DNA of 64,000 bases from Lingula anatina (GCA_051362555.1 CM120645.1:4154001-4218000); one strand, 5' to 3'. Counted from the first letter of the stretch, positions 50,553 to 52,454 are shown. Made by a program: numbers and translations. The notes: generated by a model from the sequence alone, not told the origin.

Positions 50553-50619
50553 TGCTCCACCTCCAGCAGGTGCCGTTGAGACCGACCCACAACCCCCTCC
50601 TCGACGCCCATATCGCAGG
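50553..50619 (+). CDS. Gene B alternative exon 2a (N-APPPAGAVETDPQPPPRRPYRR)
   Basis: ttccag|T GCT CCA CCT fits phase 2; start paralogous to exon 2b; phase-0 gtaatg donor. Confidence 0.7.
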
Positions 50620-50658
50620 GTAATGACGTTTATAAATGTATCCACAATATCGTTTCAG

Positions 50659-52111
50659 TGCTCCACCACCTGCTGGGGCTATTGAGTCTGATGCTGGTGC
50701 TGCTGACCGCGCCAAGGCTGCTGCTGACGCCCGCGCCCGCGCCCAAGCTGAGGCTGCAAGACGTGCTCAAGCCCAAGCTGAGGCTGAAAGGCGCGCTCAA
50801 GCCCAGGCTGAGGCTGAGGCCCGTGCCCGTGCCCAGGCTGAAGCTGAAAGACGTGCTCAAGCACAGGCTGAGGCTGAAGCCCGTGCTCGCGCCCAAGCTG
50901 AGGCCGAAGCCCGTGCTCGTGCCCAGGCTGAGGCTGAAGCCCGTGCTCGTGCTCAGGCTGAGGCTGAAGCCCGTGCCCGCGCCCAAGCCGAGGCTGAAGC
51001 CCGTGCCCGCGCCCAAGCCGAGGCTGAAGCCCGTGCCCGCGCCCAAGCCGAGGCTGAAGCCCGTGCACGTGCTCAAGCTGAGGCTGAAGCCCGTGCCCGC
51101 GCCCAAGCCGAGGCTGAAGCCCGTGCTCGTGCCCAAGCCGAAGCTGAAAGACGCGCTCAAGAACAGGCTGCTGCTGAGGCTCGTGCCCGTGCTCAAGCTG
51201 AAGCTGAGGCTCGTGCTCGTGCCCAAGCTGAGGCTGAAGCCCGTGCTGCTGCTGAGGCCCGAGCTCGTGCACAAGCTGAGGCTCAGGCTCGTGCTGAGGC
51301 CAACGCACGTGCCGCTGCTGCTGCTCAGGCTGCTGCCGAAAATGCTGCCGCTCGTGCCCATGCTCAGGAAGCTGAATCTGGTCGTCTGTCTGGTGTGGCT
51401 GCTGCTGCTACCGATGCTGCCAATGCTGCCTTTGCCACATACGAGGCCAAGAAAGCCCAGTCTGACAGGGAAGCTGAGACCGCCGCCGCCGCTGCTGCTG
51501 CTGCTGATCGTGCCGAAGCTGCTGCCCAAGCCTCCAATCAAGCCAAAGACGATGCTGTTGCAAGAGCTGCCGCCGCTGCCAGTGCTGCTGACGAGGCTGC
51601 CACCGCTGCTGAAGCTGCTGCCGAGAAATACAACACTGCTAAAGCAGCCGCCGACGATGCTACATCCCGTGCTACTGAAGCTGCCGAGCTCTCCAGCAGT
51701 GCAGCCGCGGCCGCAGAGACCGCCAAAGCCGCCAAGACTGACGCCACCGCCAGAGCTGCTCAGCTCGCTGAGGCCGCCGCTGAAGCTCTTAGAGCTTCCC
51801 AACAAGCAGCAGGTGCCTACCACGCAGCCAAAGACGAGAAGGCTTCCCTTGTTGCCAAATCTAATGCAATTGATGCCCAGAGAGATGCCGAAGCTGCATC
51901 CAGACTGAATGTTAATATCTCCCGGCAGCGCGAAATTGCTGCCGCCCGTGCACGTGCTGCAGAGAGAGCACGTGCTCAGGCCGAGGCTGACGCTAGAGCC
52001 GCCGCTGCTGAAGCTGCTGCACGTGCTGCCGAAAGAGCCGCCGCTGCTGCTGCTGACTATTATAGAAGATTTTCTTTCCGTGGCTACTACGGAAAGGCGC
52101 CTTACTACTAA
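50659..52111 (+). CDS. Gene B alternative terminal exon 2b: Ala-rich repeat protein (547 aa with exon 1)
   Basis: tttcag|T GCT CCA CCA fits phase 2; variation between repeats is mostly synonymous in this frame; ends [24 protein letters not shown] at 52240. Confidence 0.9.
50727..51300 (+). repeat. Coding 30-bp tandem repeat (~17 units, [10 protein letters not shown] / [10 protein letters not shown])
   Basis: The 30-nt period is directly visible. Confidence 0.95.
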
Positions 52112-52436
52112 ATATGGGGTAGGGGCATTTGTGGCGCGGGAGGGATTTTAGGTAACGGATTGAAACATAATTTTTCGTAAAGCGACTATTTTGGCCTCCT
52201 CAGTTTTGAAGAAACTACCTAGATGATGAACGTTTATTTATTAAATGTAAATACTAACAACCTCTAATCCATAAAGCATTGCGTTTACTCTATTTATTTT
52301 GTCTTAAGTCAAATGCGATTGATCTTTAAAAAACGATTTACTTTTTTACAGTCATTGTTTAGAGACATATCAGATCAACATCACCGCCTTCTTTCTATCC
52401 TGTCTCTATATTTGTCTTTTCGTTCAACATTTTCAG

Positions 52437-52454
52437 AGGTACCGCTACTACTAG
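52437..52454 (+). CDS. Gene B exon 3 for the short isoform (RYRYY*)
   Basis: Long pyrimidine tract + tttcag|AGG TAC CGC TAC TAC TAG; phase 0 matches exon 2a; AATAAA at ~52591. Confidence 0.7.
   Translation, partial: RYRYY

Follow-up and report, generated by a model that had tools for sequence, protein, structure and literature searches.

Mutually exclusive exons are flanked by common exons, and exactly one of the pair enters each transcript. A donor-to-branch-point distance below 50 nt and frame incompatibility of the joined exons are recognised mechanisms of this exclusion (PMC5740500). In the available text of that source, pairs of the steric class combine a duplicated exon start, a common entry phase, such a short distance and a frameshift on joining, and the atlas of human pairs requires predicted exons of similar length (differing by at most 60 nt) that hold no in-frame stop. 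Splicing also reshapes secreted matrix proteins. The accessible part of a study of Lymnaea shell-forming genes (PMC6007483) describes tissue-dependent splicing by which secreted low-complexity matrix proteins gain or lose domains; the word "mutually" is absent from its main text, and no duplicated either/or pair or rod switch was found in it. Steric exclusion and the splicing of low-complexity matrix genes are both already known mechanisms.

Several structural proteins offer points of comparison, as far as the accessible parts of their descriptions go. The Tyr/Gly-rich regions of KRMP-3 and prismalin-14 bind chitin (PMC4498902), and prismalin-14, KRMP and shematrin each have a Gly/Tyr-rich region. 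The alanine-rich shell matrix proteins of Lingula (PMC4595640) are secreted proteins of about 100-200 aa, predicted to be helical, with R(A)4-5 blocks, several poly-Ala blocks, a Tyr/Gly motif (GYGY) and tandem duplication. Bee Ala-core coiled-coil silks (PMC12284834) have an Ala-rich helical centre with Ala at the core heptad positions and non-helical ends thought to link the rods; they are products of four genes and form a heterotetramer. Among designed peptides, EAR8-II (AEAEARAR; PMC3876047) and the EAK16 family (PMC8950079) are relevant here, EAR8-II being reported as more helical than EAK16-II.

The locus described here lies in a 64,000-nt stretch of Lingula anatina DNA, the window, which has a GC content of about 37% and is animal DNA. 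Our reading, to which we assign a probability of roughly 0.6, is that in transcripts of one gene, exon 1 and exon 3 enclose one of two alternatives, exon 2a or exon 2b, and that both protein products are likely secreted into one extracellular structural matrix.

An either/or pair of internal exons

All parts of the gene lie on the plus strand. A TATA-like box (48431..48437) marks the main promoter in the sequence, and RNA read starts cluster at 48472-48479. The coding part of exon 1 (48477..48667), supported by junction reads and by a homolog, runs from the ATG at 48477 to a phase-2 donor and encodes a hydrophobic, signal-peptide-like stretch (residues 1-17) followed by a double-YYP motif. Intron 1 (48668..50552, or to 50658 in the long form) is removed at GT..AG joints that skip 1885 or 1991 nt. 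The Pro/Arg-rich exon 2a (50553..50619, 67 nt) is separated from exon 2b (50659..52151, 1,493 nt), which encodes an Ala-rich rod, by a 39-nt intron (50620..50658) whose splicing-out was not seen. Exon 2b has its own stop at 52109-52111, followed by 40 nt of UTR and a donor after 52151. An intron in the 3' UTR of the long form (52152..52436) is removed by a GT..AG joint that skips 285 nt. The shared last exon 3 (52437..52611, the 3' end being approximate, as read depth falls to zero after the bin 52458-52611) contains an AATAAA at 52591; in the short form it encodes RYRYY and the stop at 52452-52454, and in the long form it is UTR. The spliced frames 1-2a-3 and 1-2b give proteins of 91 and 547 aa, both ending in YY.

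Six of nine RNA runs of the same species label were examined, at 6-30% of each. The three informative runs, X7, X9 and X8, belong to one study (P3), and joints were listed from three reads upward. Four GT..AG joints define the two forms. Exon 1 is joined to exon 2a (48667-50553) by 108, 26 and 29 reads in X7, X9 and X8, respectively, and to exon 2b (48667-50659) by 12, 2 and 6; exon 2a is joined to exon 3 (50619-52437) by 158, 26 and 37, and exon 2b to exon 3 (52151-52437) by 10, 0 and 0, the ten having six independent starts. Thus 163 reads enter exon 2a and 221 leave it, with 20 and 10 for exon 2b. The short form is the major one in the joint-bearing runs, the long form making up 7-17% per run, and joint results for X7 and X8 were near-identical at a 90% likeness threshold. 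Neither a 2a-2b joint (50619-50659), against 221 uses of the 2a donor, nor a joint skipping both exons (48667-52437) is listed in the RNA runs, so that exactly one of the two exons is included. Allowing for the floor of at least three reads, the upper bound on 2a-2b joining is about 1.4-2.6%.

These results bear out a sequence-only reading of this DNA, which had placed the exon 1 donor at 48667 and acceptors at 50553, 50659 and 52437, and had proposed mutually exclusive use of 2a and 2b with products of 91 and 547 aa. Every one of these positions holds, the three junctions proposed there (48667-50553, 50619-52437 and 48667-50659) were all found as GT..AG joints, and the junction reads support the mutually exclusive use and its two products. 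They also make a model with one continuous exon from 50553 to 52111 unnecessary; no indel at 50620-50640 is listed in the RNA reads, where introns are barely covered. The assignment of exon 3 and its AATAAA to the short form needs amending: that form does use them, but they are not private to it, since the joint 52151-52437 serves the long form too. The splice architecture is very probably correct as described, and because the long form is spliced into exon 3 (an exit that rests on 10 reads from one run), 2a and 2b, with 67 and 1,493 nt, form an internal pair of which one or the other is used.

That last joint is also where the pair could be read differently. Exon 2b might mainly be an alternative last exon ending at the ATTAAA at 52240, a possible alternative end inside the long form's 3' UTR intron, with the splice to exon 3 as a minor route; the gene would then choose between terminal exons and would lack a true either/or cassette. 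The 52151-52437 joint occurs in X7 only (none in X8 or X9), and the share of 2b is 11% at the exon 1 donor against 4% at the exon 3 acceptor (Fisher p 0.013); given this gap and the single run, some long transcripts may end at 52240. Against this, the joint is GT..AG, has six independent starts and reaches 72 letters on its shorter side, and depth in 52150-52303 is just 0.68 in X7 and 0 in X8. Variants and an insertion also cluster at 52032-52123, with lower mapping there, and the end of 2b has hardly any coverage, or none, in X8 and X9. We consider this arrangement unlikely.

The mutual exclusion of 2a and 2b would be hard-wired. Candidate branch adenosines in the 39-nt intron lie at positions 7-30, and an intron of this size leaves no more than about 30 nt between the 2a donor and any branch point, which would cause steric interference. 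As all five measured introns of a neighbouring G-protein alpha gene are at least 232 nt, 39 nt is unusually short here. The earlier claims that 39 nt separate the 2a donor from the 2b acceptor and that joining them would be out of frame were confirmed; the hypothetical 2a-2b join is a frameshift giving 94 aa, with a stop that precedes the next junction by 1,466 nt. Under the 50-55 nt rule, a stop far upstream of the last junction makes an mRNA a target for decay, and a stop as close to it as that of exon 2b escapes. A joined 2a-2b mRNA would accordingly be degraded, and the long mRNA, with its stop only 40 nt before the last junction, would escape. The absence of the 2a-2b joint is compatible with a steric block or with decay alike; judged from the intron itself, steric exclusion is probable.

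The gene is best described as a variant of steric mutually exclusive exons, not as a standard member. Like the pairs in the accessible text of PMC5740500, 2a and 2b have common flanking exons (both enter from 48667 and exit to 52437), and like its steric class they have a duplicated start, the same entry phase, a donor-to-branch-point distance below 50 nt and a frameshift on joining. Unlike pairs admitted to that atlas of human exons (PMC5740500, available text), they differ in length far beyond 60 nt (67 vs 1,493 nt), and 2b holds the in-frame stop at 52109-52111. Compared with the pairs of the same source, the likeness here is also confined to about 11 codons, the exit phases differ, and exon 3 is coding or UTR depending on the form. 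No precedent for such a switch was found in a literature search that covered mostly freely accessible papers.

A 12-bp stem between the exon starts (50561-50572 with 50667-50678) was considered as an exclusion mechanism and rejected: the region has a z of 0.34, synonymous shuffles reach the stem length in 2-5% and the energy in 21-30% of cases, and a change at 50567 in the RNA allele breaks it. An ATG-started 491-aa ORF at 50636 was likewise discarded, as it lacks a signal peptide and the junction reads bypass it. The Ala-rich exon is also overlain by long shadow frames without stops (50630-52147 and 50679-51407 on the minus strand, 50580-51908 on the plus strand); they are expected from its codon make-up and were not treated as genes. 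Rfam gave no match within 44000-56000.

Relatives and the origin of the pair

Only one of four representative database matches is a credible homolog: P0124, the 105-aa L. anatina protein XP_013404387 (E 5e-4). The match falls partly on the signal peptide, and the name "prismalin-14-like" is automatic. The other three (P0121-P0123) were set aside as repeat proteins with no relation to it. XP_013404387 resembles the short form in its signal-peptide-like start, a PGT-YYP...R-x-x-Y-x-P-x-GY motif, a basic Tyr-rich YY tail and a length of about 100 aa; it differs in that the likeness is N-terminal only and its tail is Gly/Tyr-rich, where the tail here is Pro/Arg-rich. Its atlas neighbours are mostly cuticle-type proteins, all below 0.9 and to be taken as leads only. 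We know of no long isoform of XP_013404387.

Searches for more distant relatives were negative. Exon 2b gave 190 matches from 7,998 candidates, and the best 120 are compositional, unrelated and mostly bacterial. Exon 1, searched at near length, found no relative in the single candidate, and an alignment run against proteins of 185-2000 aa scored none of 8,000, a result that is weak evidence. Pfam has nothing for 2b and one sub-threshold match for exon 1, on the signal region; the atlas search gave no usable match for 2b; and in the fold search the 2b model had no match and the exon 1 model a best Z of 3.4, too low to be informative. In a metagenome scan, the one pattern match of 105 that passed was a chance match between bacterial genes and was rejected.

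The starts of 2a and 2b are paralogous, as the sequence-only reading had proposed: 31 of 44 nt are alike, and their local score was reached in 0 of 1000 shuffles. This likeness is confined to the first 11 codons, and both exons enter in phase 2. The two exons would derive from tandem duplication of one exon start. As the Lingula relative is short, the rod would have been gained in 2b; comparison of the sequences suggests that the short form is ancestral and that the rod came after the duplication of exon 2.

Exon 1 itself has a paralog 2.3 kb upstream. This copy, exon 1-prime (46203..46384, plus strand; tblastn 65% over 52 aa), follows a TATA-like box at 46155..46161 (plus strand) and has a signal-peptide-like start, a YYP motif and a phase-2 donor. 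It is closer than exon 1 to XP_013404387, which matches it at 62% over 39 aa and exon 1 at 42% over 53 aa. It is followed by no counterpart of exon 2 or exon 3. About 4 near-identical reads fall on it in X3, as estimated from bin depths, and none in X7-X9, and no joint is listed. Exon 1-prime may be an alternative first exon, giving products of 88 and 544 aa; it may also be a separate 61-aa gene that uses a pyrimidine-rich acceptor at 47156, or a relic.

Elsewhere in the window there are a spliced G-protein alpha (Gi/o) gene (~14730-22245, plus strand; measured introns of 232-4718 nt) and an intronless rhodopsin-family GPCR (37264-38334, minus strand; 356 aa counted from the first probable Met; 7tm_1 E 1e-24, Srw E 4e-13). 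A 179-aa stop-free frame with a hydrophobic stretch lies in an AT-rich region (28422-28961, plus strand). Self-blastn found dispersed repeats at 2899-3172, 7411-7620, 11193-11362, 13706-13941, 33015-33662, 40100-40334, 41562-41795 and 61249-61429, some with an inverted-repeat structure like that of non-autonomous DNA transposons.

The short and the long product

The two forms are identical over residues 1-71. Their N-terminus is hydrophobic, with no later 19-residue hydropathy window above 0.85, and looks like a signal peptide. The double-YYP motif is modelled as a small hairpin at low confidence (pLDDT 66). The tails are encoded separately, that of the short form by the end of 2a and exon 3 and that of the long form, a basic Tyr-rich segment ending in GKAPYY (52058..52108, plus strand), by the end of 2b. 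The proposal that both forms carry the same two sticky ends is therefore right for the start and not for the tails, which differ in sequence. The DNA likeness of the two YY tails is at chance level (117 of 300 shuffles scored as high) and so gives no support to shared ancestry of exon 3 and the 2b tail; this tail would be either convergent or diverged.

The mature short form has 74 aa, a predicted pI of 9.75 and 18% Pro, 15% Arg, 15% Tyr and 9.5% Gly. We take it to resemble Pro/Arg-rich antimicrobial peptides, and a composition of this kind, in what is also the major form (163 vs 20 reads), would suit a released cationic effector peptide with an antimicrobial or signalling function, the roles of the two isoforms then being unrelated. 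Both forms nevertheless keep the common 71-residue start and a YY end, and XP_013404387 has, besides the common motif, the kind of Gly/Tyr/Arg tail that structural proteins typically show, and its atlas neighbours are mostly of cuticle type, even if these are all below 0.9. An effector role is, on this balance, quite improbable, and we lean moderately towards a secreted structural-matrix role that both forms share.

The mature long form is near-neutral, with 43% Ala and 2.5% Gly, and its 16 Tyr are concentrated at the two ends, 13 of them within the first 63 or the last 17 residues. Its rod consists of a [10 protein letters not shown] repeat followed by an Ala-rich segment with a 28-residue period. 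The decapeptide repeat ([14 protein letters not shown]; 50717..51253, plus strand, about 17.5 copies of 30 nt) is a predicted helix at pLDDT 81-91 and includes 11 exact copies of AEAEARAR. Over residues 84-262, Ala stands at every second place (98 residues lie in stretches with this alternation), 29 Glu-to-Arg pairs are spaced i+4, and a heptad stripe is absent from the decapeptide region, Ala making up 48-55% at all seven positions; taken together, this fits a single charged helix. The second segment (51392..51877, plus strand; residues 309-470), a predicted coiled-coil-type helix, has a 28-residue period with a z of 4.9, reached in 0 of 5000 shuffles over 60 lags. Two of its heptad positions hold 74% and 57% Ala and 9% and 13% charged residues, and the period and the heptad Ala together fit an Ala-core coiled coil. 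The long form also has 4 blocks of R(A)4-6 and 7 poly-Ala blocks of at least four residues.

An AlphaFold model of 2b made with no alignment is all helix, with three long helices (mean pLDDT 75, pTM 0.26) that would span about 67 nm end to end. The long form would be a helical rod with a length of at most about 67 nm, in which a charged single-helix repeat precedes an Ala-core coiled-coil segment. Its Tyr-rich ends would bind chitin or be tanned; the short form would supply such ends without the spacer, and the splice ratio would tune cross-link density. The idea of a cross-linker paired with a fibre subunit fits the Tyr at both ends and the predicted helical rod.

The tails are Arg/Tyr-rich, and neither form has the Gly/Tyr-rich region of prismalin-14, KRMP and shematrin. 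The Lingula alanine-rich shell matrix proteins (PMC4595640), compared by description only, are likewise Ala-rich, predicted helical and secreted (secretion being predicted here), with R(A)n blocks, a Tyr/Gly motif and tandem duplication, but the long form has 547 aa and a decapeptide repeat and no GYGY. The bee silks (PMC12284834) have a similar Ala-rich helical centre, core-heptad Ala and non-helical ends; the Ala-core heptad pattern is found here in residues 309-470 only, and the silks, as a four-gene heterotetramer described without a decapeptide repeat or splice switch, are an analogy only. The AEAEARAR copies equal EAR8-II exactly (PMC3876047, PMC8950079), but AQ stands between successive copies, and the long chain that contains them is predicted to be helical. 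A conversion of this repeat from helix to sheet would be a bold option.

Source of the reads and constraint on the rod

P3 reads carry fixed differences from the window, which most of them match at 90-95%, and their source is accordingly a divergent population or a sister species. We took them as the same locus because the splice sites are intact in the window and a few reads cover intron 1. Runs under the one species label diverge from the window by 5-10% (X7-X9, study P3) or by about 1% (X1 and X3, study P1), for which cryptic species or very high polymorphism are possible explanations. X1 (4 reads), X3 (11 reads, 7 of them on a repeat) and X4 (none) gave no joints, so expression is strongly sample-dependent or the runs are not comparable.

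Essentially every P3 read carries fixed differences and the near-identical runs lack a joint, which could also mean that the reads stem from a sister species or a paralogous locus and that the window's own allele is not spliced in this way. Yet the four joints fall exactly on GT/AG sites that are intact in the window, with open frames there, low-depth reads cover intron 1 at 90% likeness or more, and in X1 two near-identical reads map to the 3' end of 2b; we regard this explanation as very improbable. In addition, many reads (~189, 94 and 62 in X7, X9 and X8) lie on short pieces of 51317-51430 (plus strand) with a joint that goes back 114. Their loose ends, inspected by eye, are Ala-rich codons, and their counts are far above the long-form junction depth. 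Co-expression of a further, more abundant Ala-rich transcript from a different locus is likely.

The variants listed in exon 2b change 11 codons synonymously and 4 non-synonymously, where 25.7% synonymous is expected (p 1.5e-4, for the best-supported variant subset as listed), and an 18-nt deletion in this exon is in frame. This shows that exon 2b is under purifying selection between alleles. Among the listed variants, 6 of 11 changed codons are synonymous in exon 1 and 5 are not, and in 2a 1 of 3 is and 2 are not; exon 1 and 2a are less constrained than 2b. That the long form is a functionless, leaky by-product of a recently expanded repeat, as its minor share (7-17% per run) and the lack of a rod homolog might suggest, is largely refuted by this synonymous excess and in-frame deletion in a 1,449-nt open frame, and by the long form's separate YY tail and stop 40 nt before the junction.

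A wider scheme may be drawn for the locus as a two-by-two toolkit, although we hold it to be improbable. Two promoters and first exons (46203 and 48477) would combine with the sterically locked exon pair to yield four proteins for secretion, some of them short linkers with Tyr ends and the others rods of 67 nm. With its natural EAR/EAK-like repeat, the rod would change from helix to beta-sheet as it is deposited, and the stiffness of the material would depend on the splice ratio. A rod with 11 copies of a designed self-assembling sequence is in itself a candidate biomaterial.

Catalogues of exon pairs that assume similar length and no stops would miss a 22-fold asymmetric pair in which the flanking exon flips between coding and UTR. 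The N-terminal motif in common with the Lingula protein marks an uncharacterised protein family, and the gene may represent one route by which exon duplication followed by repeat expansion would give rise to a rod-protein gene while a small secreted peptide is kept.
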